Under the pieces are notes generated by a model that saw only the letters and a list, made by a program, of their open reading frames with translations, made no database searches and was not told the origin of the DNA. This document shows positions 1,220 through 52,180 of a stretch of 52,753 nt of DNA, piece by piece (positions within the stretch are counted from its first letter, which is position 1; every line of letters begins with the position of its first letter). This DNA is from Candidatus Omnitrophota bacterium. Its GTDB lineage: Bacteria > Omnitrophota > Gorgyraeia > Gorgyraeales > Gorgyraeaceae. The position numbers and the translations under genes were made by a program. The stretch lies in the NCBI GenBank assembly GCA_043821705.1, contig JBDRCN010000016.1, positions 1-52,753 of the forward strand, given 5' to 3'.

Positions 1220-1280
1220 AATAGGGTTTATGTTGCGGGCGCCTTGGCTTGTTTCATAGAAACCATTATGACGCTATAGG

Positions 1281-1377
1281 TAGCGGTAACGGGTGACCGC
1301 GATTGGGGTCCCCGCAAGCGCGCAGGCGTTTCGCGAGCACTTGCGGGGTAAATCGTGGACAGGACCCGTTACCACTA
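1281..1377 (+). repeat. GC-rich long imperfect hairpin, family C copy 1
   Basis: Stems TAGCGGTAACGGGT/ACCCGTTACCACTA, CCGCGATT/AATCGTGG and CCCCGCAAG/CTTGCGGGG. The core matches the reverse complement of 52048-52138. Confidence 0.9.
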
Positions 1378-1405: not shown

Positions 1406-3583
1406 ATGTCAAAGATCATTGCATCAGCTGCTATTCGAGGAGCTAGGGAGATCTATAAAATTGCAGAGACAAATATTAATAAAGCTATCAAAGAAAAAGG
1501 AGAAACTCATGAATTGAAATTCCCTGAAACAGCTTTTTATCTTCCCATGGCCTATGCTCTGTTAGGCAAGGAAGTAAAGACGCTAAAAGAGGGGAAAGAG
1601 ATCCTTGATTATTCAAAGCTGCTTCTTCATGATGAACCAGCTGATAAGATCTGGCTTCCATATCTAGGCCCTACTCTAGATTCTGGCATAGCAGCTCTAT
1701 TATGCGAAGAAGTCATAATGGCGCTAAGATACCTATATAATGAAGAGCCCCAGAAAGACTGTAATGGGTTTTTCTCAGATACTATACTTAGAACTCTTGG
1801 TATCCAGCTAGTAGATGGAAGGATGCCTGGGTTTGCTGCCATATTAGGCGCTGCGCCAGACAATAAGACTGCAGTGAGTATAGTAAGAGAATTGCAAAAA
1901 AGAAGCATAATGACATTTGTAGGAAGTTCTGTTAATGGTAGAAGCATTATTGACCAGCTAATAGAAGAAAAAGTAGAAATGGGTTGGGATACCTATATAG
2001 TACCTTACGGAAGAGACACGTTAAGTGCTATATATCCTTTACATTGGGCGATAAGAGGTGCTCTTACTTTTGGTGGACATAGAAAAGGTGAAGCACTCAA
2101 ATGCCTAAAATATTGCCAGAATAGAGTATTTGCTTTTGGTATGGTGTTAGGAGAACTTGATGATATAAAATATGCTACTGGAGCAGGTGCAATAAACATG
2201 GGCTTTCCGATCATAGCTGACACTAATATCCCTGAAATAAGGCCAACTGGTATATGTACATATGAACATGTCGTAAGAGAACTTGACCATAAAAAAATAG
2301 TGCCTAAAGCAGTTGAATTAAGAGGGATAAAATTAAAGGTCTCTGAGATACCAATACCTGTTTCTTATTCTCCTGCATTCGAGGGAGAAAGAGTAAGGCG
2401 TGAACAGATGTTCGCTCAGTTTGGTGGAAAATATTCAGATGCATTTGAATATGTAAAGATGGTGGATGCAAATACCATAGAAGATGGAAAGATAGAAGTA
2501 ATAGGGCCAGAACTTGATGAGATAAAAGAAGGCGGGGCTTCTCCTTTAGGAGTTTTAGTAGAAGTGGCTGGCAGAAAGATGCAAAAAGATTTCGAGCCTA
2601 TCCTGGAAAGGCAGATACATAGTTTCTTGAACGAGGCAATGGGTGTCTTCCATATGGGCCAAAGAGATATGTGCTGGGTCAGGATATCAAAAGATGCCAA
2701 GAATAAAGGTTTTAAACTTAAACATTTCGGCACAATAATTCATGCTAGATTCCATGATGTATTCTCAACGATCGCAGACAAGGTACAGATAACCATATAC
2801 ACAAAGCAAGTTGACGTGGAAAAACACATAGAAGAGGCTAAAGTTTCATACAATGAGAGGGACGAGAGAGTAGCGAACATGACTGACGAAAGCGTGGATA
2901 TTTTCTGGACATGTACACTGTGTCAAAGTTTTGCACCAAATCATCTATGCGTTATAAAACCTGAAAGGTTAGGCCTATGCGGTGCTTACAACTGGCTGGA
3001 TGCAAAAGCAAGCTATGAGCTTAATCCATCCGGCCCAAACCAGCCTATTAAAAAAGGAGAATGCCTCGACCCTGTAAAAGGTGAATGGAAAGGCGTAAAT
3101 GAAGCTATCTTTCAAAAATCAAACAGAACACTTGAAAGATTCTGTGGATACTCTATAATAGATTCTCCAGAGACCAGCTGTGGTTGCTTTGAATGCATCA
3201 TCGCGATACTTCCTGAAGCTAATGGTTTCATGGTGGTGAACAGAGAATACTCTGGGGCTACGCCTGCTGGTATGGGTTTTTCTACTCTTGCCGGAAGCAT
3301 AGGCGGAGGACAACAGACCCCTGGCTTTATGGGAGTGGGTAGACTTTATTTAACTAGCAAAAAGTTTATTTCAGCAGAAGGTGGATTAAAAAGACTAGTA
3401 TGGATGCCAAAAGAATTGAAAGTTGCACTGAAAGAAAAGCTAGAAAAAAGATGCAAAGAAATTGGAGACCCTGACTTAATAAATAAAATTGCGGACGAGA
3501 GCGTCGCTGCTAATATGGAAGAACTTTTGCCGTTCTTAGAAAAAGTAGGCCATCCAGCATTAATAATGCAGGCAATAATGTAA
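1406..3583 (+). CDS. acsB: Acetyl-CoA synthase (CODH/ACS alpha subunit, bacterial type)
   Basis: 725 aa. N-terminal FPETAFYLP domain and A-cluster ligands CTLCQSF, LCGA and SCGCFE. GGAGG RBS. Confidence 0.97.
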   Translation: MSKIIASAAIRGAREIYKIAETNINKAIKEKGETHELKFPETAFYLPMAYALLGKEVKTLKEGKEILDYSKLLLHDEPADKIWLPYLGPTLDSGIAALLCEEVIMALRYLYNEEPQKDCNGFFSDTILRTLGIQLVDGRMPGFAAILGAAPDNKTAVSIVRELQKRSIMTFVGSSVNGRSIIDQLIEEKVEMGWDTYIVPYGRDTLSAIYPLHWAIRGALTFGGHRKGEALKCLKYCQNRVFAFGMVLGELDDIKYATGAGAINMGFPIIADTNIPEIRPTGICTYEHVVRELDHKKIVPKAVELRGIKLKVSEIPIPVSYSPAFEGERVRREQMFAQFGGKYSDAFEYVKMVDANTIEDGKIEVIGPELDEIKEGGASPLGVLVEVAGRKMQKDFEPILERQIHSFLNEAMGVFHMGQRDMCWVRISKDAKNKGFKLKHFGTIIHARFHDVFSTIADKVQITIYTKQVDVEKHIEEAKVSYNERDERVANMTDESVDIFWTCTLCQSFAPNHLCVIKPERLGLCGAYNWLDAKASYELNPSGPNQPIKKGECLDPVKGEWKGVNEAIFQKSNRTLERFCGYSIIDSPETSCGCFECIIAILPEANGFMVVNREYSGATPAGMGFSTLAGSIGGGQQTPGFMGVGRLYLTSKKFISAEGGLKRLVWMPKELKVALKEKLEKRCKEIGDPDLINKIADESVAANMEELLPFLEKVGHPALIMQAIM

Positions 3584-3596
3584 CTTAAATTTAATT

Positions 3597-3696
3597 CTAA
3601 ATGACTAATGACAAAATCCAAATAAATTCCAAATTTCCAATTTGACATTGGGATTTAAATAATTGATTTGTCATTTGAGATTTGACATTTGTCATT
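3597..3696. repeat. Intergenic low-complexity hairpin (AATGACAAA/TTTGTCATT units)
   Basis: Left arm has AAATGAC/AATGACAAA/CCAAAT units; right arm has TTTGTCATT/TTTGAC units. Confidence 0.65.
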
Positions 3697-3730
3697 ATCT
3701 TTAAAGATTATTTGCAAAGGGGGTACTTAA

Positions 3731-5071
3731 ATGGCGTTATCGGGACTTGATATCTATAAATTATTACCAAAGACAAATTGTAAAAAATGTGGTTCACCTA
3801 CGTGTCTTGCGTTTGCAATGAAGCTAGCGATGAAAAAAGCATCCTTGGACCAATGTCCAGACATAACAGAAGATGCTAAAAAAGCTTTAGACCAGGCATC
3901 AAAGCCGCCTATCGCAACTATCTCTTTTGGCTACGGAGATGAAAAGGTCGAGACCGGAGGAGAGACAGTTCTCTTTAGGCATGAGAAGACATTTTATCAC
4001 CAGACAGCTATAGCCATAACTGTCAACGATGATCTTCCAGATGATGAGATCATAAAGAGGGCAAAAAAGATAAATGACCTATCTTTTGAAAGAGTAGGCC
4101 AGCACATTGTAATAGATGCTATAGCCTTGGTCAATAAATCAGGTTCTCCTGAAAAATTCGTAAAAGCACTCGAGAAGGTATTGGCAAATTCAAAGAAAGC
4201 CCTGATATTGGTAAGCGAGGATATAAAAGCCATGGAAGGAGCATTAAATATCTGCGCAAATAAAAAACCCTTAATATATGGCGCTAATCCAAGCAATGTA
4301 AAAGAAATGGCAAATCTCGCAAAATCAAATAAGCTAGCCTTGGCATTAAAGGCCAATTCTTTAGAAGCCCTAGAGATGCTTTCAAGCGAAGCTATATCTT
4401 CAGGTCTTGAAGATATAATGTTGGACCCTTCTTCAAAGACACTGAACCAGACAATAAACGACTTTACTCAGATCAGAAGAGCCAGCCTCAAAAAGAACGT
4501 AAGGTCTTTTGGTTTCCCTATCATATCTATGATCGAGGAAAAAGAAAAATATGATATTGTAAAAAAAGCATCCACAATGATAGCAAAGTATGGGGGCACC
4601 ATTATAATAGATACGCTTGATAGGGAGACAATACTTCCTATAATAACGCTTCGCCAAAATATATACACAGACCCACAAAAACCTGTAACAGTAGAGCCTA
4701 AACTTTATGCATTTGGAGCAGTTGATAAGAGCTCACCTGTGTTGGTCACAACTAATTTTTCTCTTACCTTTTACACAGTCGCACCTGAAATAGAGGCCAG
4801 TAAGATGCCTGCATACCTACTAGTAACAGATTCTGAAGGTATGAGCGTTTTAACAGCCTGGGCAGCTGAGAAATTTACTCCTGAGATAATAAACGAGACC
4901 ATGAAAAAATTTGGCGTGGAAGGGGCAGTGTCTCATAAGAAGCTCATCATACCAGGTTATGTTTCTGTGATAAGCGGTAAACTTGAAGACGAGTCTGGCT
5001 GGAAGGTCCTGGTCGGACCTAAAGAATCTTCCAATATACCAAAATATCTAAAAGAGGTGTGGAATAACTAG
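3731..5071 (+). CDS. acsC: Corrinoid iron-sulfur protein, large (gamma) subunit
   Basis: N-terminal LPKTNCKKCGSPTCLAFA...CP 4Fe-4S motif and C-terminal VTTNFSLT...LTAWAA CdhD domain. Confidence 0.96.
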   Translation: MALSGLDIYKLLPKTNCKKCGSPTCLAFAMKLAMKKASLDQCPDITEDAKKALDQASKPPIATISFGYGDEKVETGGETVLFRHEKTFYHQTAIAITVNDDLPDDEIIKRAKKINDLSFERVGQHIVIDAIALVNKSGSPEKFVKALEKVLANSKKALILVSEDIKAMEGALNICANKKPLIYGANPSNVKEMANLAKSNKLALALKANSLEALEMLSSEAISSGLEDIMLDPSSKTLNQTINDFTQIRRASLKKNVRSFGFPIISMIEEKEKYDIVKKASTMIAKYGGTIIIDTLDRETILPIITLRQNIYTDPQKPVTVEPKLYAFGAVDKSSPVLVTTNFSLTFYTVAPEIEASKMPAYLLVTDSEGMSVLTAWAAEKFTPEIINETMKKFGVEGAVSHKKLIIPGYVSVISGKLEDESGWKVLVGPKESSNIPKYLKEVWNN

Positions 5072-5659: not shown

Positions 5660-6298
5660 ATGGGTATGTCTTATTTTATATTATTTTTAGGAGGATTGTT
5701 AGCTTATCTGATAGGATCTATACCTACAGCCTATATAGCTGGGAAACTAGTCAAGAGCATAGATATAAGGCAATTTGGCAGTGGTAATATAGGCGCAACA
5801 AATACTTTTAGGGTCGTTGGAAAGATGCCTGGCGTAGCAGTGCTTCTTATCGACATGCTAAAAGGATATATGTGTGTAACATATTGTGCTGATCTATTTA
5901 TGCTCATAGCGCCTGTAGAAAGGCCTGAGCTATACAGGGTCTTAATGGGGTTATCTGCAATAATGGGCCATAACTGGACAGTGTTTTTAAATTTCAAAGG
6001 GGGCAAAGGTGTTGCAACAAGCGCAGGAGTTATTATTGCACTCATACCTAAGATATTTCTTTTAGGCCTTATTGTCTGGAGTATAATCTTCGGCCTGACA
6101 GGCTATGTATCCCTATCTTCCATAATAGCAGCTATCCTAATACCAATATTTACATTTTTGTTCAATAAGCCTGTAGAAACAATAGTAGCAATGTGTATCC
6201 TGTGTATGGTCGTGGTCTATAAACACAGATCGAATATAGCTCGTCTAAAAAAAGGTGAAGAGAGGAAGATAAAATTATTTAAAAAGGGTAAGAAGTAA
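5660..6298 (+). CDS. plsY: Glycerol-3-phosphate acyltransferase
   Basis: Motifs YLIGSIP, GSGNIGATN, GHNWTVFLNFKGGKGVAT and HRSNI. Confidence 0.95.
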   Translation: MGMSYFILFLGGLLAYLIGSIPTAYIAGKLVKSIDIRQFGSGNIGATNTFRVVGKMPGVAVLLIDMLKGYMCVTYCADLFMLIAPVERPELYRVLMGLSAIMGHNWTVFLNFKGGKGVATSAGVIIALIPKIFLLGLIVWSIIFGLTGYVSLSSIIAAILIPIFTFLFNKPVETIVAMCILCMVVVYKHRSNIARLKKGEERKIKLFKKGKK

Positions 6299-8259
6299 TG
6301 GGGGATTATTTAGCTAATGTCTTCTCTGCTTCAGGCCCCATTGCAACTTTGATGCCGAATTACGAGTCAAGGCCAGAACAGCTCGAGATGGCTAAAGCTG
6401 TAAGCAAAGCTATCGTTGACGCAAAAATATTGATAGTAGAAGCTGGCACTGGAGTTGGTAAAAGTTTTTCTTATCTGATACCTGTAGTGCGTCATGCTCT
6501 TGAAACAGAAACTCTCGCCATCATATCCACTAACACTATAAGCCTTCAAGAACAGCTAATACATAAAGACATACCTTTCTTAGAAAAGGTTCTAGATGAA
6601 GACCTCGGAGCAGTCTTAGTAAAGGGAAGAAAAAATTATGTCTGCTTAAGAAGATTAAAAAGGTCTAATCTTAAACAAAAGGATCTTTTTTCCGATGAGC
6701 GAGAGATGCAGCAGTTTTCTAAGATCATTGCCTGGTCCTACAGGACGAAAGATGGGTCTTTGTACGACCTGGACGACGAGATAGACATGAGGGTCTGGGA
6801 CATAGTCTCTTCTGATGCTGAGAACTGTCTTGGGAAATCGTGCCAGTCTTTTAAAGAATGTTTTTTTCAAAACGCCAGGGAAAAGATAAAAGAAGCCCGC
6901 GTTCTTATAGTCAATCACAGCCTGTTCTTTGCTAACCTTGCAAGACACGAAGAGAAAAAAAGTATATTCCCTGAATACGATGCAGTTATCTTTGATGAAG
7001 CCCATACCATAGAAAATGTAGCTACTGACCATCTCGGCGCTAATATAAGCAGCACTAATCTTAAGTTTTTAATGGACATTCTCTTTAACTCAAAAAAACA
7101 AAAAGGGCTTCTCTTGACCGTAGGAAGCCAAGATGCCATGGAATGGGTAGAGGTAGTGCGCAATAGGTCTGATAGTTTTTTCAAGGGTGTGAAAAAATAT
7201 TTTCTTGCTAGAGCAAGTAATGATTACTCAGATTCTCTTAGGGTTCGAGAAGCAAATTTTATAGAGAATACCCTTGAAGTGCCACTAGCAAAACTTATGG
7301 AGACCCTTCTTGAAGCGAAGAAAACAGCAGATAATAAAGAAGATGAGGCTGAGATCTCATCATTTATAAAAAGGATCAATGATATCAGGACATCTCTGGA
7401 TGTAATAATAAACCAGACCTTGAGCAACTATGTATACTGGGTAGAGTGCTCTAGGTCCCAAAGACTAGACAAGGTCTCGATAAATGCTGCGCCAATAAAT
7501 ATCGGGGAGATCTTAGAAAAATTACTCTATTCTGAAAACAAACCAATGATCTTTACAAGTGCTACATTGTCTATAGACAATAATTCTTTTGAATATTTTA
7601 AAGATAGGATGGGGATAAAAGGATCCGAAGAGTTACAGCTAGGGTCTCCTTATAACTATAAGGAACAAGTGAATATCTATATTTCAAAACACATGCCTAA
7701 CCCTAATAAGCTCAGCGAATATGCCCTAGCATCATCGAAAAAGATAAAAAAATATATAGCACTTACCAATGGCAATGCATTTATATTATTTACCAGCTAT
7801 TCCCTGATGAACCTGGTCTATAAAGAGCTTGAAGACTATCTTCTAGAAAAAGATTACAACCTTTTAAAACAAGGGGACGGTGTCTCCAGAAGCAAGATGC
7901 TTTCTAGATTTAAAGAGAAAAAAGGTTCGATCCTGTTCGGTGTTGATAGTTTTTGGCAGGGTATAGATGTCCAGGGAGAAGCTCTCTCGAACGTGATCAT
8001 AACAAAACTCCCTTTCCAAGTACCCGATCATCCTGTAATTGAAGCTAGGGTCGAGGATATCCAAAGTAAAGGCAAAGATGCTTTTATGGAATACAGCCTC
8101 CCTGAAGCAGTGTTAAGATTCAAGCAAGGTTTTGGCCGTTTGATACGCAGTAAACAGGATAAGGGAATAGTAGCTATTCTAGATAGCCGCATAATAACTA
8201 AATTTTACGGCCGCGCATTTCTGAATTCCATTCCCGAATGCACCCTCATCAAAGACTAA
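6298..8259 (+). CDS. dinG: DinG/YoaA-family SF2 helicase with Fe-S cluster
   Basis: EAGTGVGKS, DEAH, FTSATL and QGFGRLIR motifs; Fe-S cysteines in YVCL...CLGKSCQSFKEC. Confidence 0.9.
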   Translation: MGDYLANVFSASGPIATLMPNYESRPEQLEMAKAVSKAIVDAKILIVEAGTGVGKSFSYLIPVVRHALETETLAIISTNTISLQEQLIHKDIPFLEKVLDEDLGAVLVKGRKNYVCLRRLKRSNLKQKDLFSDEREMQQFSKIIAWSYRTKDGSLYDLDDEIDMRVWDIVSSDAENCLGKSCQSFKECFFQNAREKIKEARVLIVNHSLFFANLARHEEKKSIFPEYDAVIFDEAHTIENVATDHLGANISSTNLKFLMDILFNSKKQKGLLLTVGSQDAMEWVEVVRNRSDSFFKGVKKYFLARASNDYSDSLRVREANFIENTLEVPLAKLMETLLEAKKTADNKEDEAEISSFIKRINDIRTSLDVIINQTLSNYVYWVECSRSQRLDKVSINAAPINIGEILEKLLYSENKPMIFTSATLSIDNNSFEYFKDRMGIKGSEELQLGSPYNYKEQVNIYISKHMPNPNKLSEYALASSKKIKKYIALTNGNAFILFTSYSLMNLVYKELEDYLLEKDYNLLKQGDGVSRSKMLSRFKEKKGSILFGVDSFWQGIDVQGEALSNVIITKLPFQVPDHPVIEARVEDIQSKGKDAFMEYSLPEAVLRFKQGFGRLIRSKQDKGIVAILDSRIITKFYGRAFLNSIPECTLIKD

Positions 8260-8264
8260 AAAAC

Positions 8265-8316
8265 TAGAGACGAAAATTAGGGACCGTCTACCTCGCAAGG
8301 AGGAACCTGCCCCCCC
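8265..8316 (-). repeat. REP-like palindrome family A, left flank of the RAYT gene
   Basis: Minus strand reads GGGGCAGGTTCCTCCTTGCGAGGTAGACGGTCCCTAATTTTCGTCTCTA; inverted relative to 8887-8953. Confidence 0.8.
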
Positions 8317-8323
8317 TAACATC

Positions 8324-8809
8324 TCATAAAATTAATTCATCTAATATTTCTCGCTCCTTAGGTTTTTCTAAGATCCTTTCGCTATAGCTGCTATACGAAT
8401 ATTCAAAAACTGACTTTACTAATTCCGCCCTAACTGGATTACATTCAATATAAGCAATGCAATCTAACAAATACCTCTCATCAGAGACAATCTTACTCTT
8501 AAACCTCCCTTGCCACAAATATCCGACTTTTTTATATTTCTCATTAAAAAAGTTTGTGTAAGAAAGATTTAAATCATGCATAAAATCGGATATCTTTTTA
8601 GCATCTTTCAGTCTAGCAAGAATGTGAATATGATTTGGCATAAGACAATATCCATATATCGAGACATTATATTTTACCTTATACTTTTTTAATCTAGACA
8701 AATAATTCTCATAATCAGTGGATTCCCTAAATACATTTCTTTTCTGATTGCCCCTAGTTATAACATGGTAATAGGCATTATCCAATAATACTCTTGGCGC
8801 TTTTGGCAT
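8324..8809 (-). mobile_element. HUH/Y1 transposase of the IS200-like superfamily, RAYT (REP-associated tyrosine transposase) type
   Basis: YHVITRGNQKRNVF, YCLMPNHIHIL (HUH), LWQGRF and YIECNPVRAELV...YSYSSY. ATG at 8809 follows an AGGAGG RBS. Flanked by inverted palindromes. Confidence 0.88.
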
Positions 8810-8886
8810 ATAAACCACCTCCTCCTACTATATAGACACAGTGGGTACTCATTTTCTTTCAATTTTTTTTAAAAAAACTTTGGTAA

Positions 8887-8953
8887 GGGGCAGGTTCCCC
8901 CTTGCTAGGTACCCGGTACCGCCTTGTGAGGTAGACGGTACTAAAAGTCTCTA
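8887..8953 (+). repeat. REP-like palindrome family A, right flank of the RAYT gene, with a 22-nt insert
   Basis: GGGGCAGGTTCCCCCTTGC-[TAGGTACCCGGTACCGCCTTGT]-GAGGTAGACGGTACTAAAAGTCTCTA. Confidence 0.8.
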
Positions 8954-8961
8954 AGAAGGTA

Positions 8962-8990
8962 TTGACACATGCCCCTTTATAATATATAAT
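8962..8990 (+). promoter_or_regulatory. Consensus sigma70 promoter of trpBA
   Basis: TTGACA (8962-8967), 17-nt spacer, TATAAT (8985-8990). Confidence 0.85.
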
Positions 8991-9016
8991 TTATATTCAA
9001 TATTGGAGATATATAT

Positions 9017-10189
9017 ATGTATCCGGATAAAAGAGGTAAATTTAAGGAATTTGGGGGGAAATTTGTCCCTGAGACGCTAATGGTAGCGCTCGAAGAATTA
9101 GAAAAGGAATATAAGATCGCCCTAAAGGACTCTAGATTTAAAAAAGATCTAGATAACCTTCTAGCGGTCTACGCAGGAAGACCAACATCGCTTTACTTTG
9201 CAAAGAATCTATCTAAAAAAGCAGGTTGTAAGATCTACTTAAAAAGAGAAGACCTTCTCCATACAGGAGCGCATAAGATAAACAATACTTTAGGCCAAGC
9301 TCTGTTAGCAGTTAAGATGGGTAAAAAACGCCTTATTGCTGAGACAGGGGCAGGGCAGCACGGAGTCGCTACTGCTACAGCAGCAGCAGTGTTCAGCCTC
9401 CCATGTGAAGTCTACATGGGAATAGAAGACATTGAGCGGCAAGCGCTAAATGTATTTAAAATGAAACTCTTGGGCGCAAAAGTTATACCAGTATATTCAG
9501 GAAGCAGAACGCTTAAAGATGCTACTAACGAAGCTATAAGAGATTGGGTCACAAATGTCAGGAACACTCATTACATAATAGGCTCTGTCGTTGGGCCCCA
9601 TCCTTATCCAGCAATGGTAAGGGATTTTCAGGCTATTATCGGGAAAGAAACTAAAAAAGATATTCTAAAATATGAAAAAAGACTTCCTGATTACATAGTT
9701 GCATGCGTAGGAGGAGGGAGTAATGCTATTGGCATCTTCCATGCATTCTTCAATACCAAGGTTAAATTTATCGGAGTAGAAGCAGGTGGCCTGGGATTAG
9801 GTACTAAGAAACATGGCGCAGCACTCTGTAAAGGTGAGCCAGGGATCCTCCATGGATCAAAAAGTTATTTGCTTCAGGACAAAGGAGGCCAGATAACAGT
9901 TGCTCATTCAATATCAGCTGGTCTTGACTATCCAGGAGTAGGGCCTGAACATTCATATTATAAGACTATAAAAAGAGCGCAGTATGTTGCAGTAAGTGAT
10001 AAAGAAGCGCTTGTAGGCTTTAAGATGCTAAGCGAACTAGAAGGCATCATACCAGCACTAGAACCGTCTCATGCGATCTATTATGCAGTCAAAAGGCTGG
10101 CTCCAAAATTAAGTAAAAACAAAACTATCGTAGTCTGTCTATCAGGAAGAGGCGACAAGGACATAGATATTATAAAAAAATATATGTAG
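9017..10189 (+). CDS. trpB: Tryptophan synthase beta chain
   Basis: HTGAHKINN (PLP lysine), [14 protein letters not shown] and SGRGDKD. Confidence 0.98.
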
Positions 10190-10272
10190 TTATTAGTTTT
10201 TAGTTGTTGGTTGTTAGAAAAACATCTAAGACCTGCAATCTAAAAACTAAAATCTAACAACTAATAACTAAA
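10186..10272. repeat. Heptamer-built hairpin, (TAGTTRT)n / (AACAACT)n-like
   Basis: TAGTTATTAGTTTTTAGTTGTTGGTTGTTAG followed by CTAAAAACTAAAATCTAACAACTAATAACTA. Begins at the trpB TAG stop. Confidence 0.75.
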
Positions 10273-10275
10273 GCC

Positions 10276-11067
10276 ATGAATAGGATTGATAAAAAATTCG
10301 GAGAATTAAAACAAAAGAAAAAAAAGGCTTTCATCAGTTTTATAATGGCTGGGGACCCGAACCTAGCTACCACAAAAAAACTTGTGCTTGAGCTAGAGAA
10401 TAGCGGAGTTGACATTATTGAGCTCGGAGTACCTTTTTCTGACCCTCTAGCAGACGGTCCTACTATCCAAAGGTCATCCGAGAGAGCTCTTAAGAAAAAA
10501 GTAACATTAGATTCAGTCTTTAAGCTGGTTAGAGAGTTAAGATCAAAGACTAATATCCCAATAGCATTCCTGATGTATTACAACTTGATCCACTATTATG
10601 GATTAGAAAAATTTGTAAAAAAAGCTGTTTCTTCCGGGGTAGATGGCGTGATCATCCCTGACCTGCCGCCTGAAGAATCAAAAGAACTTTCTTTAAGTGC
10701 AAAAAAGCACAAACTCTCGATAATATACCTGGCTGCACCTACTAGCTCAAAAGAAAGGTTAGTAAAGATCTCTCAAGCCTCGACAAGTTTTATATATTAT
10801 GTCTCGCTCACTGGTACTACTGGGGTTAGAAAAAAACTCCCAAAAGAAATATTCAATAACCTAAGAGAGATAAAAAAGATCACACGCAAACCCATATGTG
10901 TAGGTTTTGGTATTTCTACATCGGAGCAGGTTAAAAAAATATCCAGATTAGCTGACGGGGCTATCGTAGGAAGTGCTATCATAAAAGTTATTGAAAAAAA
11001 TGCTAGGAAAAAAGATATAGTAAAAATAGTAGGAAGATTTGTAAAGAAACTTAGTTCAGCAGTTTAA
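10276..11067 (+). CDS. trpA: Tryptophan synthase alpha chain
   Basis: ELGVPFSDPLADGPTIQ, GTTG and DGAIVGSA. Confidence 0.98.
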   Translation: MNRIDKKFGELKQKKKKAFISFIMAGDPNLATTKKLVLELENSGVDIIELGVPFSDPLADGPTIQRSSERALKKKVTLDSVFKLVRELRSKTNIPIAFLMYYNLIHYYGLEKFVKKAVSSGVDGVIIPDLPPEESKELSLSAKKHKLSIIYLAAPTSSKERLVKISQASTSFIYYVSLTGTTGVRKKLPKEIFNNLREIKKITRKPICVGFGISTSEQVKKISRLADGAIVGSAIIKVIEKNARKKDIVKIVGRFVKKLSSAV

Positions 11068-11087
11068 CATCTTTTATGGAGGAATAA

Positions 11088-12143
11088 ATGTACGCAGTAA
11101 TAATGGCAGGAGGAAAAGGCGAAAGGTTATGGCCTAAGAGTGCGCGTGGAAAAGCAAAACATTGTCTTAGCTTCGGCACTAGGAATGTGATGATAAAAGA
11201 GACTATTAAAAGACTAAAAGACAGTATAAACCCCCAGAACTTATTTCTCATAACAACTAAAAGCCAGTACAAGTCTCTAAAGCCCTACGTCTCTGATATA
11301 GATAAAAAGAATATAATACTCGAACCAGAAGGAAGGGATACAGCTTGCGCCATATGCCTGGCAGCCCTTACTATACAAAAAAGATTCGGTGATCAAACCA
11401 TGATAGTGCTTCCTGCTGACCATATCATCAAGGCCTCAAAGGCATTTTCGCAGGACCTATTGTTCGCGGACAAGATCGCTAGCGCTTCACCATCCCTGGT
11501 CACTTTAGGTATAAGACCAAAATATGCTTCTGTTGGCTATGGTTATATTAAAACTGGAAAGAAGATGCCCGGATATTACGCTGTCAAAAGATTTATTGAA
11601 AAACCTAAAAAGAAAAATGCTGAAAAATTTTCCAAGAAAAAAGATTATCTTTGGAATAGCGGCATCTTTATCTGGAAGACAAGTTCTATACTAAACGCAT
11701 TAAAAAAACATACTCCGAAACTATATTACAGCCTAAAGGATACAATAAAATTCGATGGCAAGCGGGGATTTGCCCTAAAACTACAGAACTGCTACAGAGA
11801 TATAAAACCTGTCTCTATAGATTACGCTGTTATGGAACCTACGACCAAAAGCAAGGCCCAAAAGATACTATGCATCAAATCCAGTTTTGACTGGATAGAT
11901 ATAGGATCATGGTCTAGCGTAGAAGAGATATATGATAAAGATCCTTCTGGGAACATCGTACTGGCAAACACGAGCCTCTTGGATGTGAAAAACTCTATAG
12001 TCATCGGGGAGATGGATCATAAGGTAGGAGTGATAGGCCTAAAAGACATCATTATAGTGCAGACAAAGTCAGGAACGCTTATTTGTAATAAAAACAGGGC
12101 TCAGGACGTAAAGACTCTTGTCAAAAGTTTTAACCATGCCTAG
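11088..12143 (+). CDS. manC: Mannose-1-phosphate guanylyltransferase (short form, no PMI domain)
   Basis: VIMAGGKGERLWPKS, EPEGRDTA, PADH, WNSGIF and WIDIGSW. Confidence 0.92.
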   Translation: MYAVIMAGGKGERLWPKSARGKAKHCLSFGTRNVMIKETIKRLKDSINPQNLFLITTKSQYKSLKPYVSDIDKKNIILEPEGRDTACAICLAALTIQKRFGDQTMIVLPADHIIKASKAFSQDLLFADKIASASPSLVTLGIRPKYASVGYGYIKTGKKMPGYYAVKRFIEKPKKKNAEKFSKKKDYLWNSGIFIWKTSSILNALKKHTPKLYYSLKDTIKFDGKRGFALKLQNCYRDIKPVSIDYAVMEPTTKSKAQKILCIKSSFDWIDIGSWSSVEEIYDKDPSGNIVLANTSLLDVKNSIVIGEMDHKVGVIGLKDIIIVQTKSGTLICNKNRAQDVKTLVKSFNHA

Positions 12144-12549
12144 GATAATCGGCCTTGATGTCGGCGAAAAAAGAGTAGGAGTAGCTGTAAGCGATGCGCT
12201 CAATATCACAGCCCAAGGTATAGATACAATAGAAAGAAAGAACGATTCAGTTCTGCTGGAAAAGATCAGATCTTTAGTAAAAGAATATGAAGTTTCTAAA
12301 ATAATCGTCGGCATGCCTCTCAATATGAACGGCTCAAAAGGGAAAAGCGCGCTTGCCATTCGAGACTTTTCTGATAAATTAAAGCATGAACTTAAGATAG
12401 ACATTGAGTTAATAGATGAGCGGCTGACATCCGCGCAAGGCGAGAGACTTTTAATACAAGCTGATGTCTCAAGGAAAAAAAGAAAACTCGCGATCGACAA
12501 GATAGCAGCACAATTAATATTACAGACATATCTGGACTCTGATGTATAA
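12136..12549 (+). CDS. yqgF: RuvX/YqgF pre-16S rRNA nuclease
   Basis: GLDVGEKRVGVAVSD, DERLTS and IDKIAAQLILQTYL; ATG at 12136. Confidence 0.93.
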   Translation: MPRIIGLDVGEKRVGVAVSDALNITAQGIDTIERKNDSVLLEKIRSLVKEYEVSKIIVGMPLNMNGSKGKSALAIRDFSDKLKHELKIDIELIDERLTSAQGERLLIQADVSRKKRKLAIDKIAAQLILQTYLDSDV

Positions 12550-13810
12550 AAAAATAGACCTCAAAAACAATGTTAGATTAGTGCTTAATCATATGCCCAA
12601 GATGGAATCTGCATCTATCGGCATATGGGTAGCTACTGGTTCTAGGGACGAGGATAAAGAGCTCTCAGGTATATCGCATTTCCTTGAGCACATGATATTC
12701 AAAGGAACTCCTTCAAGAAGCACTCGTGACATAAAAGAAGAGATCGAAGGAAGAGGTGGTTCCTTGAACGGATTTACATCAGAAGAGCTTACGTGTTATT
12801 TAGCAAAGGTGTCCCACGAACATGTAGGTATTGCAATAGACGTATTATCAGACATGGCGCTCTACGCCAGCATTAATAGTAAAGAAGTAGAAAAAGAGCG
12901 CAATGTAATAATAGAAGAGATCAAGATGTACGAAGACCTCCCAAATCACTTGGTGCACGATGTTCTCCATGAGATGATGTGGCCTGAACATGCATTGGGC
13001 AGGAATATTGCTGGGGATATAAAAACAGTCTCACGCATCGGAAGAAAAGAGCTCGTCTCCTATAAAAGGTCTGCTTACATACCTAAGAACATGGCAGTAG
13101 TCATATGCGGGAACCTAAAAACAGGCAAAATAATAAAAAAAGTAAAGAAGATATTTGATTCAAGAGACTCTTTAAAGCCAAAAGATATAATAGAATTTAA
13201 GAACAACCAATCTGAGGCAAAAATACGGATATTTAATAAAGACACTGCTCAATCCAGGCTTTCTATGGGCATACATGCCTTTGGCAAACTACACAAAGAC
13301 AGGTACGCCTTAAGTCTATTACATATAATACTAGGAGCGAACATGTCGTCCAGGCTCTTCGATAACCTCAGAGAAAAAAGAGGCCTAGCGTATGAGATAG
13401 GCACAGAGATAAAAAAATACAAAGACACAGGGGCCTTTGTCGTAAATGCTGGCATGGAGCATGCGAAAGTAAAAGAAGGCGTCTCTCTAATATTAAAAGA
13501 ACTAAAAAAGATAAAAAACCATCCTGTGCCAAAAAATGAACTAAAAAGGGCAAAAGAGTTTTTTAAGGTCCAAGTACTCTTGGCTCTAGAAGATACCATG
13601 GACCATATGCTTTGGCTAGGCGAAAAGACCATGACCCAGGATAAGCTGCCGAATAAAAATAGGTTAATAAAAAAGATAACATCCCTTACATCTGGCGACC
13701 TGCAACGTGTTGCGAGAGATGTCTTTAAAAAAGAGAACCTAAATATTGCTATTGTCGGGCCTATGAAAGATAAAGAAAAAGATTCTATAGAAAGTAGTAT
13801 CGATCTATAA
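12542..13810 (+). CDS. M16 family zinc peptidase (pitrilysin/MPP-like)
   Basis: Inverted zincin motif HFLEH, GGSLNGFTSEE and SSRLFDNLREKRGLAY. Confidence 0.92.
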   Translation: MYKKIDLKNNVRLVLNHMPKMESASIGIWVATGSRDEDKELSGISHFLEHMIFKGTPSRSTRDIKEEIEGRGGSLNGFTSEELTCYLAKVSHEHVGIAIDVLSDMALYASINSKEVEKERNVIIEEIKMYEDLPNHLVHDVLHEMMWPEHALGRNIAGDIKTVSRIGRKELVSYKRSAYIPKNMAVVICGNLKTGKIIKKVKKIFDSRDSLKPKDIIEFKNNQSEAKIRIFNKDTAQSRLSMGIHAFGKLHKDRYALSLLHIILGANMSSRLFDNLREKRGLAYEIGTEIKKYKDTGAFVVNAGMEHAKVKEGVSLILKELKKIKNHPVPKNELKRAKEFFKVQVLLALEDTMDHMLWLGEKTMTQDKLPNKNRLIKKITSLTSGDLQRVARDVFKKENLNIAIVGPMKDKEKDSIESSIDL

Positions 13811-13825: not shown

Positions 13826-14539
13826 ATGAAAAAGATTATGATAGCCCCAAGTATACTCTCCTGCGATTTTTCAATATTAAAGGATGAGTTGAAAAAAATA
13901 GAAGATTCTGGAGCTGATATGGTGCACATAGATGTGATGGATGGCAATTTTGTGCCAAATATCACCATAGGACCTCTCATAGTAGAGGCAATAAAGAAAA
14001 ACACAAGGTTACCGCTAGATACTCATCTCATGATAGCGAATCCCCAGAAATTCGTCCCAGCTTTTATAGAAGCTGGCAGCGACATAGTGACTATACACGC
14101 GGAAGCATTTGCAAAAAAGACAAGCCCATCAAGTCTTACTAAAGGAATGTCATTCTCTGTCAATGAGATAGATGAATATAGGCTACAAGAGGCCTTGTCA
14201 TTAATAAAAGATAAAGGGAAAAAAGCTGGGGTATCCTTAAACCCAGATTCAAGTTTCTGCATAAAAGGCATTCTCAAGGACATAGATATGATACTTCTTA
14301 TGTCAGTGCATCCAGGGTTTGGCGGACAAAAATTTATTGAAAAGGTCATCCCTAAGATAAAAGAAGCAAGATCATTGTATGAGGGAGATATACAAGTAGA
14401 CGGCGGCATAAATGATAAAAATGTCTCATCAGCGGTTGAGGCTGGAGCAAATATCATAGTAGCAGGGTCTTATTTTTTTAGCGCGAAAGACCCGAAGGAA
14501 GCAGTAAATAAATTACGCATAAAAACAGAAAGTTCGTGA
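13826..14539 (+). CDS. rpe: Ribulose-phosphate 3-epimerase
   Basis: IAPSIL, HIDVMDGNFVPN, MSVHPGFGGQ and VDGG. Confidence 0.96.
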   Translation: MKKIMIAPSILSCDFSILKDELKKIEDSGADMVHIDVMDGNFVPNITIGPLIVEAIKKNTRLPLDTHLMIANPQKFVPAFIEAGSDIVTIHAEAFAKKTSPSSLTKGMSFSVNEIDEYRLQEALSLIKDKGKKAGVSLNPDSSFCIKGILKDIDMILLMSVHPGFGGQKFIEKVIPKIKEARSLYEGDIQVDGGINDKNVSSAVEAGANIIVAGSYFFSAKDPKEAVNKLRIKTESS

Positions 14540-14592
14540 ACCGTGATTCGTGAATCGTAAACGGATCACGGATTACGCATTACAGATTACGA
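14535..14592. repeat. Heptamer-built palindrome (CGTGAWY)4(RRATYAC)4, copy 1
   Basis: 53/58 identical by eye to 22886-22943; contains the rpe stop codon. Confidence 0.9.
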
Positions 14593-18464: not shown

Positions 18465-18767
18465 ATGAAAAAATATTCAATACTACTATTGGTATTGGCA
18501 CTGGCTTTTGTTGTAGGCTGTACAGGCACACAAAAAGGCGCTGGTATTGGTACGCTTATAGGCGCAGGAGCAGGCGCTATAGTTGGACACCAGTCAGGCC
18601 ATGCTGCAGAAGGAGCCCTTATAGGTGGCGCAGTAGGGGCAGGCGGAGGAGCCCTTATAGGCGATGCCATGGATACTAAATTTTGCCCTGATTGCGGAGC
18701 TGATTTTACTTCAGGGGTCCAATATTGTCCAAACTGCGGCACTGAACTAAAAGCAAAACAAAAGTAA
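18465..18767 (+). CDS. Small lipoprotein: glycine zipper plus C-terminal zinc ribbon
   Basis: AGGAGG RBS, signal peptide with lipobox VVGC, GxxxG repeats and CPDC...CPNC. Confidence 0.8.
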   Translation: MKKYSILLLVLALAFVVGCTGTQKGAGIGTLIGAGAGAIVGHQSGHAAEGALIGGAVGAGGGALIGDAMDTKFCPDCGADFTSGVQYCPNCGTELKAKQK

Positions 18768-18792
18768 ACATAAACTAACTGATCAGCAACAT

Positions 18793-18827
18793 AAAGACCT
18801 CGCTATAACTAGCGGGGTCTTTTTTTG
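18793..18827 (+). terminator. Rho-independent terminator
   Basis: Stem AAAGACCTCGCTA/TAGCGGGGTCTTT followed by a T-run. Confidence 0.85.
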
Positions 18828-18876
18828 CATTTACCATCAGCGGTCCGTCTTGTCTCACCCCTATCAGCACCGCTTG

Positions 18877-19112
18877 ATAGTTGAAGCTAAATGGATACTC
18901 TGTCTGCGAATTTGAAAATTTAAACTTTTATGAAGCAATTTTCGGTTTTTATGCCACATTTTATGAGGCGAAAAAACTCGAAGCTGTTCGACGGCACCGC
19001 ACCAGATTTTGCGGTGCCTAGTTTTTTAAGCCCCGAAAAATGCTGAATAAAAGGCGACCCAAAGGGAAAATTTTCATATGAGCGGACAGAGCTCCTTTTA
19101 GATTTAACTGAT
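18877..19112 (+). other. Structured dispersed element family D, copy 1 (ncRNA or non-autonomous mobile element)
   Basis: About 50-nt imperfect terminal inverted arms plus internal hairpins; colinear with 52181-52584. Confidence 0.8.
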
Positions 19113-19116
19113 AGGT

Positions 19117-19163
19117 GGGGGCAGGTTCCCGCTTGGGAGGGAAACGGTCCCAAGTTCGCTCTA
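19117..19163 (+). repeat. REP-like palindrome family A, dispersed copy
   Basis: GGGGGCAGGTTCCCGCTTGGGAGGGAAACGGTCCC, 30/35 identical to the RAYT left-flank copy. Confidence 0.75.
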
Positions 19164-19169
19164 TTTTCA

Positions 19170-19198
19170 TTGACCTTTTTTCCTTATAGTGTTAAAAT
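19170..19198 (+). promoter_or_regulatory. sigma70 promoter of the acsV operon
   Basis: TTGACC, 17-nt spacer, TG-T-TAAAAT. The ATG is only 10 nt downstream and there is no SD. Confidence 0.7.
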
Positions 19199-19208
19199 CT
19201 AAGCTACT

Positions 19209-21146
19209 ATGGAAAAATTTACTATTAAATTTCTGCCTGCCAATAAGACCGTAGAGGTACAAAAAGGTGTTGACCTCTTAACAGCTAGTATTAAAGCTGG
19301 TATACATATATATAATAGCTGTGGGGGAGAGGGTGTATGTGGAAGATGTAAGGTCATAATAAAAAAAGGCAGGGTCATAGCTGAGCAAAGCGGCAGGATA
19401 TCAGCCAAAGAACGGTCCAAGGGCTATGTTCTTGCATGCCGCGCTACTCCTGAATCCAATCTTGAAGTCTTTATCCCTGAAGAATCCAGGCTGGGCGACA
19501 TAGAAGTCCTTACTGAAGAGACAAGATCGAAGCGCCTTGCTGGGCTTTACACTCCTGCTGAAGAGATAGAAGAAGAAAAACATAAAAAAGATGCCCTAGT
19601 CTTCAAGCACGGGCCTCTTTCAACAAAATTATTTTTAAAATTAAGCCGTCCGAGTATTGACGATAATATGGGGGATGCGGAGCGGCTTTTTAGCGCCATA
19701 AAGCAAGGCAGAGACATTAATATTATGCAGATGGGGTTGGCAAATATAAAAAAATTACCCCGCCTCTTAAGAGAATCTGATTGGGAAGTCACGGTCACTC
19801 TCGGGAACAGGAACGGCACCACTGAAATAGTATTGATCGAACCTGGCAATAAATCAGGTAAGAATCTAGGCATTGCCCTAGACATAGGTACCACTACCAT
19901 AGTAGCATACCTGGTAGACCTTAAATCCCAGAAAGTGCTAGGCGCGAAAGCAAGCTATAACCCTCAGGTAGATTTTGGAGAAGACGTAATATCAAGGATC
20001 ATGTATGCAAAAGAACCAGCTGGTTTAGAAAAATTGCACCACGCTGTAGTAGACACTGTAAATAACCTGGTAAATAATCTCGCAAAAGAAAATAACCTCA
20101 CTTTAAATGATATCAATGCGTGCATGTCAGCTGGGAACACCACGATGACGCATTTACTTTTAAAGATAAACCCAGAATATATAAGAAAAGAGCCTTACAT
20201 ACCTGCTATTAATTTTATGCCCGTGATACGAGCTATAGAAGTTGGTATAAAGATAAACCCCAGAGGCCTTCTAGCGTGTCTTCCCAGCATAGGCAGTTAT
20301 GTTGGCGGAGATATAATCGGAGGGATACTAGCATCTGACATGGATAACTCCAAAGACTTGTCTCTCTTTATAGATATGGGGACTAATGGGGAAGTAGTTG
20401 TCGGGAATAAAGAATATCTTATCGCGTGCTCCACATCGGCTGGCCCATGCTTTGAAGGAGGAGGGATTGTTTCCGGAGTAAGAGCGATGAAAGGTGCTAT
20501 CCAAAAAGTCTATATAAAAAATAAGAAGTTAACTTTTGAGACCATAGGCAAGCTTCCGCCAAACGGTATCTGTGGATCTGGGATAATAGACCTCTTGAGC
20601 GTCTTACTCGAGAACAAGATAATCGATAGGTCTGGCAAGATAAAAGACAACAATATCTGTAAGGCAAGAGAAGATAGTGGCGTAAAAGAGATAGTACTCT
20701 GCGATAAAAAGAAATCTGCCACAGGAAAAGATATAGTGATCACTGAAAATGATATAAAGAACATCATCCACTCAAAAGGTGCAATATATATTGGGATAGA
20801 AACCCTCTTAAAAGAGATAGGATGTAAGAGATCCGACATAAAACATGTCTTTATAGCTGGGGGACTTGGCACAGCCTTAAGCATAAGGTCCAGCATAAAT
20901 ATCGGCCTATTGCCAGATCTCCCTGAAAAAATATTCGAGTTCCTTGGAAATACTTCTATTACTGGTGCAAAGCTTGCGCTTCTTTCAAGTGAAGCAATGG
21001 AAAATGCCTGCATTATCGCAAACAAGACCACTTATCTTGATCTAAGCACAAATTCAAACTTCATGAATAATTACAGTGCTAGTCTTTTTCTGCCGCATAC
21101 AGATATAGAACTATTCCCGAGTGTCAAAAAAATACTAAGCAAATGA
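19209..21146 (+). CDS. acsV: ASKHA/2Fe-2S reductive activator of corrinoid protein (RACo/AcsV)
   Basis: N-terminal 2Fe-2S SCGGEGVCGRC...LAC, then DIGTTT, YVGGDI, DMGTNGE, SAGPCFEG and GICGSG. Confidence 0.92.
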   Translation: MEKFTIKFLPANKTVEVQKGVDLLTASIKAGIHIYNSCGGEGVCGRCKVIIKKGRVIAEQSGRISAKERSKGYVLACRATPESNLEVFIPEESRLGDIEVLTEETRSKRLAGLYTPAEEIEEEKHKKDALVFKHGPLSTKLFLKLSRPSIDDNMGDAERLFSAIKQGRDINIMQMGLANIKKLPRLLRESDWEVTVTLGNRNGTTEIVLIEPGNKSGKNLGIALDIGTTTIVAYLVDLKSQKVLGAKASYNPQVDFGEDVISRIMYAKEPAGLEKLHHAVVDTVNNLVNNLAKENNLTLNDINACMSAGNTTMTHLLLKINPEYIRKEPYIPAINFMPVIRAIEVGIKINPRGLLACLPSIGSYVGGDIIGGILASDMDNSKDLSLFIDMGTNGEVVVGNKEYLIACSTSAGPCFEGGGIVSGVRAMKGAIQKVYIKNKKLTFETIGKLPPNGICGSGIIDLLSVLLENKIIDRSGKIKDNNICKAREDSGVKEIVLCDKKKSATGKDIVITENDIKNIIHSKGAIYIGIETLLKEIGCKRSDIKHVFIAGGLGTALSIRSSINIGLLPDLPEKIFEFLGNTSITGAKLALLSSEAMENACIIANKTTYLDLSTNSNFMNNYSASLFLPHTDIELFPSVKKILSK

Positions 21147-21149
21147 ACA

Positions 21150-21183
21150 TACTAAAAACTAACAACTAAAAACTAACAACTAT
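21150..21183. repeat. Tandem CTAAAAA/CTAACAA heptamers
   Basis: CTAAAAACTAACAACTAAAAACTAACAACTA; same unit as the right arm of 10186-10272. Confidence 0.7.
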
Positions 21184-21184
21184 T

Positions 21185-22890: not shown

Positions 22891-22943
22891 ACCGTGATTC
22901 GTGATTCGTGAACAGATCACGGATTACGCATTACGAATTACGA
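22886..22943. repeat. Heptamer-built palindrome, copy 2
   Basis: CGTGAACCGTGATTCGTGATTCGTGAACAGATCACGGATTACGCATTACGAATTACGA; contains the acsD stop codon. Confidence 0.9.
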
Positions 22944-32034: not shown

Positions 32035-32055
32035 CAGGTTGCATGCCACAAGCCA

Positions 32056-32109
32056 CCCTCCTACGCCTTTGTGAATTACAACTTAAAAGGCTGGCTTCGG
32101 AGGGCAGGC
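32056..32109 (+). repeat. REP-like repeat family B
   Basis: CCCTCCTACGCCTTT-N-GGCTGGCTTCGGAGGGCAGGC, 48/54 identical to 34227-34280. Confidence 0.9.
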
Positions 32110-32150
32110 AAGTCACAAGTTATGGATTATATATAAAAAGACATAAAAGA

Positions 32151-34224: not shown

Positions 34225-34226
34225 AA

Positions 34227-34280
34227 CCCTCCTACGCCTTTACGAATTGCAGCTTGATAGGCTGGCTTCGGAGGGCAGGC
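34227..34280 (+). repeat. REP-like repeat family B
   Basis: 48/54 identical to 32056-32109. Confidence 0.9.
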
Positions 34281-34302
34281 GGGTTGCGGGTAAAGGATAA
34301 AA

Positions 34303-40986: not shown

Positions 40987-41003
40987 CAGAGCTTTGGGTG
41001 GGC

Positions 41004-51988: not shown

Positions 51989-51997
51989 GGTAAGTTC

Positions 51998-52026: not shown

Positions 52027-52047
52027 GGAAAAAATAGCAATTAAACT

Positions 52048-52138: not shown

Positions 52139-52180
52139 CTGTCATTTCTAACCAGGTTAGGTTTGGTTATGATAGTTTTA

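Follow-up and report, generated by a model that had tools for sequence, protein, structure and literature searches.

The locus described here raises the question of why one gene should run against all of its long neighbours and stand between two inverted copies of the same sequence. It occupies positions 8265–8953 (689 bp) of a 52,753-nt stretch of Omnitrophota DNA (contig JBDRCN010000016.1), the whole of which was analyzed and is called the window below, and it lies between dinG (6298–8259) and trpB (9017–10189). It carries tnpA(Y1), which encodes a single-tyrosine (Y1) HUH transposase resembling the RAYT and TIRYT enzymes, and the gene with its flanking repeats is referred to as the cassette. 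We estimate at roughly 80% the probability that the cassette is a REPtron/TIRtron-type system, in which a RAYT-like Y1 gene, present once in the window, is enclosed by its cognate GC-rich imperfect hairpins. This reading draws on the class and fold of the protein, a cassette architecture that is conserved in relatives, repeats that covary with the protein lineage and dispersed cognate copies, and also on the empty corresponding site in a syntenic relative (locus L032) and on one dispersed copy of the hairpin that is inserted in an unrelated repeat. The features concerned are as follows.

8265–8316, minus strand: left (gene-distal) terminal inverted repeat (TIR), 52 nt, with an outer TAGAGAC module, a TTAG head and an imperfect hairpin core
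8324–8809, minus strand: tnpA(Y1), RAYT/TIRYT-like HUH single-tyrosine transposase of 161 aa, with the motifs NHIH, WQGRF and YIECNP and a YSSY tail
8810–8886, minus strand: leader and promoter region, conserved in the family, with a GGAGGTGG ribosome-binding site and the elements CTATATAGAC and TTTTCTTTCAA
8887–8953, plus strand: right (gene-proximal) TIR, 67 nt, with the 5' arm GGGGCAGGTTCC, two 3' arm modules and an outer GTCTCTA module
19116–19170, plus strand: solo copy of the repeat with an outer GCTCTA module
52487–52535, plus strand: solo copy of a subtype found at two related loci (L012 and L024), lying as an insertion of about 49 nt in copy B of an unrelated 235-nt repeat

Inverted hairpin repeats flank an antisense Y1 gene

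A previous annotation of this DNA, made from the sequence alone (the first-pass annotation), had called the gene the only one on the minus strand in the first 50 kb, and this held. The long open reading frames (ORFs) upstream of 50.6 kb lie on the plus strand throughout, with the sole exception of 8324–8818 (minus), and every other minus-strand ORF of at least 110 aa in that region is nested in a longer plus-strand ORF. The base composition of the window is about 39% GC, with positive GC skew throughout.

The two flanking repeats are mutually inverted, and each is GC-rich and forms an imperfect hairpin. Their 34-nt cores (8280–8313, minus; 8887–8920, plus) share the pattern GGGGCAGGTTCC..CTTG..AGG.A.ACGGTCCC, the left core reading GGGGCAGGTTCC-TCCTTGCGA-GGTAGACGGTCCC on the minus strand, and the outer TAGAGAC and GTCTCTA modules stretch the inverted repeat to 8265 and 8953. 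The first-pass annotation had described an inverted pair of palindromes of about 50 nt; the inverted flanks are as described, but the core measures about 34 nt and reaches about 50 nt only when the outer TAGAGAC module is counted. A 22-nt insert containing GGTACCCGGTACC had been noted in the right copy as well. That segment is indeed present (8906–8927), but it is not an insert: it repeats, in tandem and in diverged form, the 22 nt that follow it (16/22 by eye; a repeat finder reports period 22), and is thus an extra 3' arm module placed before the other one, GAGGTAGACGGTACTA at 8928–8943. Because multi-module flanks, with two 5' or two 3' arms, are common in relatives, we regard this arrangement as normal architecture. 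Once the segment is taken out, 2 mismatches remain between the cores over 33 positions.

The encoded protein is a RAYT-class Y1 enzyme

The protein contains a Pfam Y1_Tnp domain (E 2e-18) and no other Pfam domain, in agreement with its first description as a 161-aa Y1/HUH protein. Its proposed placement among the RAYTs rather than with IS200 was borne out by comparison with hidden Markov models (HMMs), as the RAYT model of NCBIfam, REP_Tyr_transpos, was marginally passed (80.9 bits, cutoff 80), and transpos_IS200 was not passed (22.1 bits against a cutoff of 55). The single match in a sequence search of the PDB was 4ER8, the E. coli TnpA-REP. The same entry was the best fold match (TM score 0.76, root-mean-square deviation [rmsd] 2.3 Å) of an AlphaFold2 model built from a 32-sequence alignment (mean predicted local distance difference test [pLDDT] score 88.9), whereas the TnpA proteins of IS608, ISDra2 and IS200 gave TM scores of about 0.5–0.55 and rmsd values of 7–9 Å. 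The HUH, WQxRF and YIExNP motifs are invariant in the 32 homologues, as are residues H60, H62, W99, Q100, R102, Y120, N124 and P125. According to Table 1 of Quentin et al. (2018; PMC6006769), class 2 TnpAY1 proteins carry Y---NP and IS200 carries Y---Q; the window protein has the class 2 form, as YIECNP where the family consensus is YIELNP. We conclude that this Y1/HUH enzyme belongs to the RAYT class (class 2, Y---NP) and is not an IS200 TnpA.

Within this class, the first-pass annotation had likened the protein to the RAYTs of Pseudomonas and E. coli, and here our analysis departs from it, since the closest described group is TIRYT, or TnpAY1 subclass 2.1. The signatures given for that subclass in PMC6006769 are NHVH / W[EQ] / YIELNP, to be compared with the family consensus NHxH / WQ / YIELNP and with NHIH / WQ / YIECNP in the window; the same source equates the subclass with TIRYT and with Group 1 of Bertels, and describes a C-terminal helix-turn-helix (HTH) domain (Bac_DnaA_C, HTH_23 or HTH_28) and a median length of 238 aa. 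A family search returned 526 matches, each of about 160 aa, with a best identity of 63%; wherever these matches name an organism it is Candidatus Omnitrophota or plain 'bacterium', and public records label these Omnitrophota proteins 'transposase' or 'RayT'. An exhaustive profile-free search yielded 35,498 cluster representatives at E ≤ 1e-3. Those closest to the family but not part of it show 40–47% identity and are mostly 190–340 aa long, and Bac_DnaA_C was found at E < 0.01 in 4 of the 10 scanned (1 over the Pfam cutoff and 1 just under it). Because these relatives are longer and some possess Bac_DnaA_C, the hallmark of subclass 2.1, the window family is best placed, as far as sequence comparison can tell, as a short, HTH-less relative of the TIRYT / TnpAY1 subclass 2.1 group.

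Repeat type and protein lineage vary together in related cassettes

Ten further cassettes were collected from eight other genomes (loci L012, L013, L016, L019, L021 with two cassettes, L022, L024, L036 and L037). Inverted hairpin repeats occur in a common arrangement in all 11 cassettes including that of the window, and L036 and L037, which were used in no model, show the architecture too. The GGGGACAG-type end of the repeat faces the gene in the related cassettes. The repeat type goes with the protein lineage: GACAGKTTCC...GGWARACGTCTC is common to L012, L013, L024 and the window, GGGGACACTT...GAGAACCGTCCC to L021a and L022, and GGCAGGTGCC...GCACCYGGTGC to L019 and L021b. In an alignment of 16 repeat units, hairpin pairing reached 79%, compared with 43–65% when the partners were slid, and covariation was above that of 500 of 500 shuffles.

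The repeat had been described as unlike the GTAG-type repetitive extragenic palindromes (REPs), and this claim had to be given up. The head at the outer foot is TTAG in both window flanks, which differs from the canonical GT[AG]G; among relatives, GTAG is found at L036 and in a doublet at L022, and TTAG, CTAG or TCAG elsewhere. Since most copies carry TAG or CAG ahead of the outer foot, the repeats are more like GTAG-headed REPs than first thought. The inner end resembles GGGGWSAS, a motif reported for TIRtrons (Di Nocera et al. 2013, PMC3733652): an exact match lies at an inner end in 6 of the 11 cassettes, and the window flanks (GGGGGCAG / GGGGCAGG) are one position off. A relationship to the CGTC-tagged REPs was considered and rejected, going by the text of PMC3733652 alone; CGTC here lies inside the stem and is not an unpaired tag.

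Further observations were made at these loci. The Y1 gene is antisense to both neighbours in 10 of the 11 cassettes, inside long co-directional arrays, and at L019 to one neighbour only. With each orthologous pair counted a single time, 8 independent cases remain (p about 0.004 under random orientation), which points to insertion in a strand-specific manner or else to selection that disfavours read-through. L016 contains a near-perfect 33-nt palindrome, TTAGGGTCAGTCCCCTTCGGGGACAGACCCTAA, in two copies at gene ends (135–167 and 3091–3123), which, judged by its sequence, resembles the hairpin doublet of the family reduced to a minimal 'double-foot' form. At L036, about 2.2 kb (10484–12741) directly downstream of the Y1 cassette contain no called gene.

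Dispersed copies of the repeat

The first-pass annotation had pointed to related copies of the repeat at 19117 and 52493, and both were recovered independently of the window. A first covariance model (R1) included the window copies, so that its scores in the window were circular; a second model (R2) was therefore built from 17 repeat units taken from relatives only, was searched with filters off, and superseded R1 for the claim on the window. In the 52.7-kb window the four best-scoring R2 matches coincide with the four sites, namely the solo copy at 52487–52535 (28.3 bits, E 2e-5), the solo copy at 19116–19170 (23.4 bits, E 4e-4), the left repeat (18.5 bits, E 0.0095) and the right repeat (E 0.39), and no further convincing match was obtained there. 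The two dispersed copies, both singlets, compare with none expected by chance.

The copy at 19116 is located in a 440-nt spacer upstream of the gene for the corrinoid activator RACo, and its segment 19117–19156 is 83% complementary to 8275–8314 over 40 nt. A possible degenerate left partner at about 18835–18866 was seen by eye; it was detected by neither model and is not claimed. The copy at 52494–52527 resembles the cassette copy at a level of only 65%, but its two arms are the same, base for base, as in the L012 and L024 repeats, and it has an exact GGGGWSAS match (GGGGACAG). The pattern ACAGTTTCC-N8-14-GGAAAACGTCTC had 1 match in the window and 0 in 100 shuffles. In 185,579 species genomes GGGGCAGGTTCCNNCTTGNNAGG gave 3 matches, and a looser pattern gave 8 in metagenomes of the Joint Genome Institute (JGI); because the 3' arm is present in 0 of these 11, all of them were attributed to chance. 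In both solo copies (19116 and 52492) the strand that folds better and tolerates G-T pairs is the plus strand, which, from GC skew and gene orientation, would be the lagging-strand template; with two copies this is a hint only.

Insertion, gene-less derivatives and persistence at fixed loci

The synteny of dinG and trpB in relatives, which the first-pass annotation had singled out, proved informative. At L032 an order of 11 genes (cdhC-cdhD-pgsA-plsY-dinG-trpB-trpA-...-rpe) is shared with the window at 59–86% amino acid identity (DinG, 67%), and trpB follows dinG without the cassette. The intervening spacer of 103 nt has its trpB promoter in common with the window and contains a terminator hairpin, and neither the cassette nor a match to the repeat model was found in it. 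A second polymorphism is internal to the window, where copy B of the 235-nt repeat has the segment of about 49 nt at 52487–52535 and the paralogous copy A lacks it.

In relatives, gene-less derivatives of the cognate repeats lie within a few kb of the cassettes. They include tight inverted doublets (L022, 3089–3170; L021, 13470–13551), a repeat pair with a spacer of about 130 nt that is 94–97% identical to the cassette ends (L019, 4898–5105), and a fused upstream-plus-downstream repeat with no gene (L024, 7926–7990). The gene itself appears to have been retained at fixed loci over long times. L021a and L022 share the position gidA-RAYT-apgM, with RAYTs 65% identical and neighbours 42–79% identical (most 68–79%), and L016 and L037 share a Tad-pilus position, with RAYTs 54% identical and neighbours 42–58%; by these sequence identities, orthologues at fixed loci appear to diverge about as much as their neighbours. 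The two L021 paralogues are 51% identical and have their own repeat type each, and a given exact protein was found in one genomic context among all places listed.

Alternative explanations

Several observations weigh against regarding the cassette as a REPtron/TIRtron-type system. The pass of REP_Tyr_transpos is barely over its cutoff, the residues aligned with E100, H101 and R104 of E. coli TnpA-REP are S, K and S, and the C-terminal HTH (Bac_DnaA_C, HTH_23, HTH_28) is absent from the 161-aa protein. Single copies of the repeat have weak folding energies as single-stranded DNA (z-scores −0.2 to −2), for which reason support for the hairpin was taken from comparative pairing; RNAalifold on the repeat-unit alignment gave only −0.7 kcal/mol, and many of the counted pairs are G-T. 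There are only two extra copies per 52.7 kb, both of them singlets with heads TTG or CGG and no TAG head, and the one at 52492, being of the other subtype, may answer to an unseen paralogue in the same genome. Finally, the empty site at L032 could reflect loss and not gain.

One could instead envisage an autonomous one-gene insertion sequence (IS) of the IS200/IS605 family with the flanking hairpins as its subterminal ends. Among the RAYT groups, according to Bertels (PMC5581495), only the IS200-like Group 6 resembles an IS more than Group 1 does. The Y1_Tnp domain, the absence of the cassette from the syntenic relative, the different cassette loci in different genomes and the second, gene-less pair at L019 with its close identity to the cassette ends would also fit such an element. 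However, the IS200 HMM score is far below its cutoff, the motif is Y---NP and not Y---Q, and the fold is nearest to TnpA-REP. Elements of the IS200/IS605 family end in same-strand subterminal hairpins without terminal inverted repeats, and they occur in many near-identical copies, often linked to tnpB. Here the ends are inverted repeats, the 52.7-kb window holds one cassette copy, and the neighbours are dinG and trpB, so that the earlier statement that there is no adjacent tnpB stands. In addition, the exact homologue is always in one context among the places listed, two orthologous cassettes (L021a/L022 and L016/L037) have been kept at the same locus despite divergence, and paralogues within one genome are only 51% identical. 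On balance we consider an autonomous IS improbable. A fully domesticated, canonical REP/REPIN-RAYT system of the Pseudomonas/E. coli type, with hundreds of REPINs genome-wide, seems slightly less probable again. It would agree with the score just over the REP_Tyr_transpos cutoff, the inverted flanking hairpins, the GTAG heads of the REPIN-like L022 doublet (3089–3170) and of L036, and the apparently vertical inheritance of orthologues at fixed loci. Nevertheless, 52.7 kb contain two dispersed copies and no doublet, the head is TTAG and not GT[AG]G and even TTAG is missing from the dispersed copies, the GTAG-contact residues are not conserved, the nearest relatives are like 2.1/TIRYT, a group for which the sources at hand report no canonical REPs, and the searches of 185,579 species genomes and JGI metagenomes gave no match beyond the 5' arm and loop.

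The hairpins might also be ordinary terminators or regulatory stem-loops at operon boundaries whose link to the gene is incidental. Every copy is intergenic, the dinG-trpB spacer of the cassette-free L032 has a terminator hairpin, and T-rich tracts follow the copies at 8276–8315 (minus strand) and 52492. Yet a scan of 8200–9050 called no terminator-like site, all 11 cassettes have one and the same repeat at either end of the gene in inverted orientation, this repeat changes with the protein lineage, and one copy is inserted within another repeat; we give this explanation hardly any credence. A search of Rfam (the whole window at the gathering threshold; 18760–19210 and 51950–52753 by E-value) detected tRNA-Gly alone and nothing at the repeats.

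Proposed mechanism and implications

If the cassette is a REPtron/TIRtron-type system, its activity can be pictured as resembling that of TnpA-REP from E. coli and of the IS608 TnpA. The enzyme would bind the folded hairpin on transiently single-stranded DNA and nick beside the foot via a 5'-phosphotyrosine, using Tyr120 of YIECNP and a metal held by His60/His62; the strand would then be rejoined elsewhere, and hairpin-bounded segments would be moved or copied. The solo hairpins at 19116 and 52492 and the gene-less inverted doublets in relatives would be non-autonomous products of the enzyme, and the gene itself would tend to remain at one locus for long. The active strand, the cleavage site, catalysis and any present activity are likewise inferred.

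A further proposal, which we regard as doubtful, is that this ~160-aa, HTH-less Omnitrophota lineage links TIRtrons and REPtrons, with REP-like xTAG hairpin TIRs that spawn REPIN-like doublets. Were it true, TIRYT (subclass 2.1 / Group 1) enzymes, which are considered REP-less, would use hairpin substrates as RAYTs do, and the antisense placement in 10 of the 11 cassettes could record fork-coupled, strand-specific insertion.

The kind of system is already known, as RAYT/REPtron, TIRYT/TIRtron and the TnpAY1 classes, and no new kind of system is described here. What is new is modest: the phylum, the short HTH-less form, and the finding that the TIRs of a 2.1-like lineage are doublet-forming, REP-like hairpins. 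The phylum is considered new for RAYT systems because a literature search retrieved no paper on RAYT together with Omnitrophica. These results extend RAYT/TIRYT-type repeat systems to Omnitrophota, an uncultured phylum. We know of no biochemistry on substrate recognition by TIRYT-class Y1 enzymes, and the compact set of covarying protein/hairpin pairs should be useful for testing it. With regard to annotation, the widespread 'transposase' calls in Omnitrophota appear to represent single-locus, long-persisting cassettes and not active IS copies.

Translation start, leader and occurrence

The longest form of the tnpA(Y1) ORF is 8324–8818 (minus; GTG start, 164 aa). The true start is predicted to be the ATG at 8809, giving 161 aa, because of the family alignment and the GGAGGTGG ribosome-binding site. 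In the leader, CTATATAGAC at 8828–8837 is the reverse complement of GTCTATATAG, and TTTTCTTTCAA at 8852–8862 is the reverse complement of TTGAAAGAAAA. The pattern TTGAAAGAAAA/TTGTTAGAAA, about 22 nt, GTCTATnnTA and GGAGGTG precedes 9 of the 9 family genes compared. A promoter scan detected no canonical sigma-70 match in the leader (8810–8886), and the spacing of the motifs misfits sigma-70; the conserved leader may act as a regulatory site and move together with the Y1 gene. A perfect sigma-70-type promoter of trpB (8962–8990) lies directly outside the right repeat. No exact match to the 161-aa protein is on record in the public assemblies looked up, and a search of sequencing runs detected the organism at trace depth in two metagenomes (two 151-nt contigs, 100% identity).

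Other repeats and genes in the window

The 235-nt repeat that houses the solo hairpin of copy B has two copies (A, 18874–19108; B, 52178–52581) of 87–91% identity and no Rfam match. It contains a terminator-like hairpin with compensatory changes (GGCACCGCA..TGCGGTGCC versus GCCACCACA..TGTGGTGGC), and a RAYT-type hairpin accompanies each copy, just 3' of copy A and inside copy B. The repeat might encode a small RNA, or it might be cargo carried by a non-autonomous element. A 115-nt segment (52252–52366) with GGTT at both sides is present in copy B only; either copy B could have gained another small insertion, or copy A could have lost the segment by a microhomology deletion.

Also without an Rfam match is a structured, GC-rich element some 95 nt long, which occurs at 1275–1375 (plus) and 52040–52140 (minus). 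Its consensus fold has −37.6 kcal/mol and two compensatory pairs in the outer stem. Each copy immediately precedes a gene, and both are oriented alike with respect to it; the two genes are unrelated and encode CdhC/acetyl-CoA synthase (ACS) beta (1406) and an AAA_22 ATPase (ending at 51988). The element may represent a cis-regulatory RNA candidate or one more repeat family. Long AT-rich palindromes made of 7-nt units at gene ends are of two types, TAGTTAT and TCGTGAA/TTACGA, each at two places (10187–10271 and 21142–21190; 14534–14592 and 22885–22943), and may be bidirectional terminators or further repeat families. Two two-copy intergenic repeats were also noted, one (40990–41057 / 41201–41268) bracketing tRNA-Gly(CCC) at 41054–41127, and one (32055–32127 / 34226–34298) just upstream of or over the predicted starts of ORFs 32043 and 34303. 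Wood-Ljungdahl genes of the window encode CdhC/ACS beta, CdhD and RACo (1406–5071; 19209–21146), and the solo hairpin at 19116 stands just upstream of the RACo gene.

Comparison with known systems

RAYT/REPtron systems were reportedly described by Nunvar in 2010 and by Ton-Hoang in 2012. Of the groups compared, the TnpA proteins of the IS200/IS605 family (IS608, ISDra2, IS200; subclass 1.1) share with the window protein the Y1/HUH core fold and, presumably, single-stranded hairpin substrates. They differ in having Y---Q where YIECNP is found here, with an IS200 HMM score far under its cutoff, in having same-strand hairpins as ends in place of inverted repeats, and in the frequent presence of an adjacent tnpB where dinG and trpB are found here.

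E. coli TnpA-REP (RayT/YafM, 4ER8, subclass 2.2) is the best match in the PDB by both sequence and fold. Both proteins are single-domain enzymes of about 160 aa with a serine-containing C-terminal tail, both genes are flanked by inverted imperfect hairpins with internal mismatches, and both systems have a conserved short head beside the hairpin foot. However, the identity is only about 19%; NHIH here corresponds to EHMH in 4ER8 (subclass 2.2 consensus DHLH) and YIECNP to YIYINP (consensus YIHYNP). The residues that contact GTAG in the E. coli enzyme, E100, H101 and R104, are not kept, in addition to which the head here is TTAG and not GTAG, and the two dispersed copies in 52.7 kb give no sign of hundreds here.

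The TIRtron/TIRYT group differs from the window cassette in three respects: the protein here has 161 aa and no C-terminal HTH, unlike a subclass with a median of 238 aa; its TIRs are REP-like imperfect hairpins with an xTAG foot, whereas the subclass is reported, in the sources at hand, to lack canonical REPs or REP-like structures; and Omnitrophota is not among the phyla named in the portions of the earlier surveys available to us. In other respects the two are alike. In both, a RAYT-like Y1 gene lies between long terminal inverted repeats, and the protein motifs are NHxH / WQ / YIE[LC]NP. The inner repeat end here fits or, in the window flanks, nearly fits GGGGWSAS, the copy number appears low with diverged paralogues within one genome, solo or dimeric TIR copies appear moderately abundant, and some of the nearest homologues outside the family carry the Bac_DnaA_C HTH.

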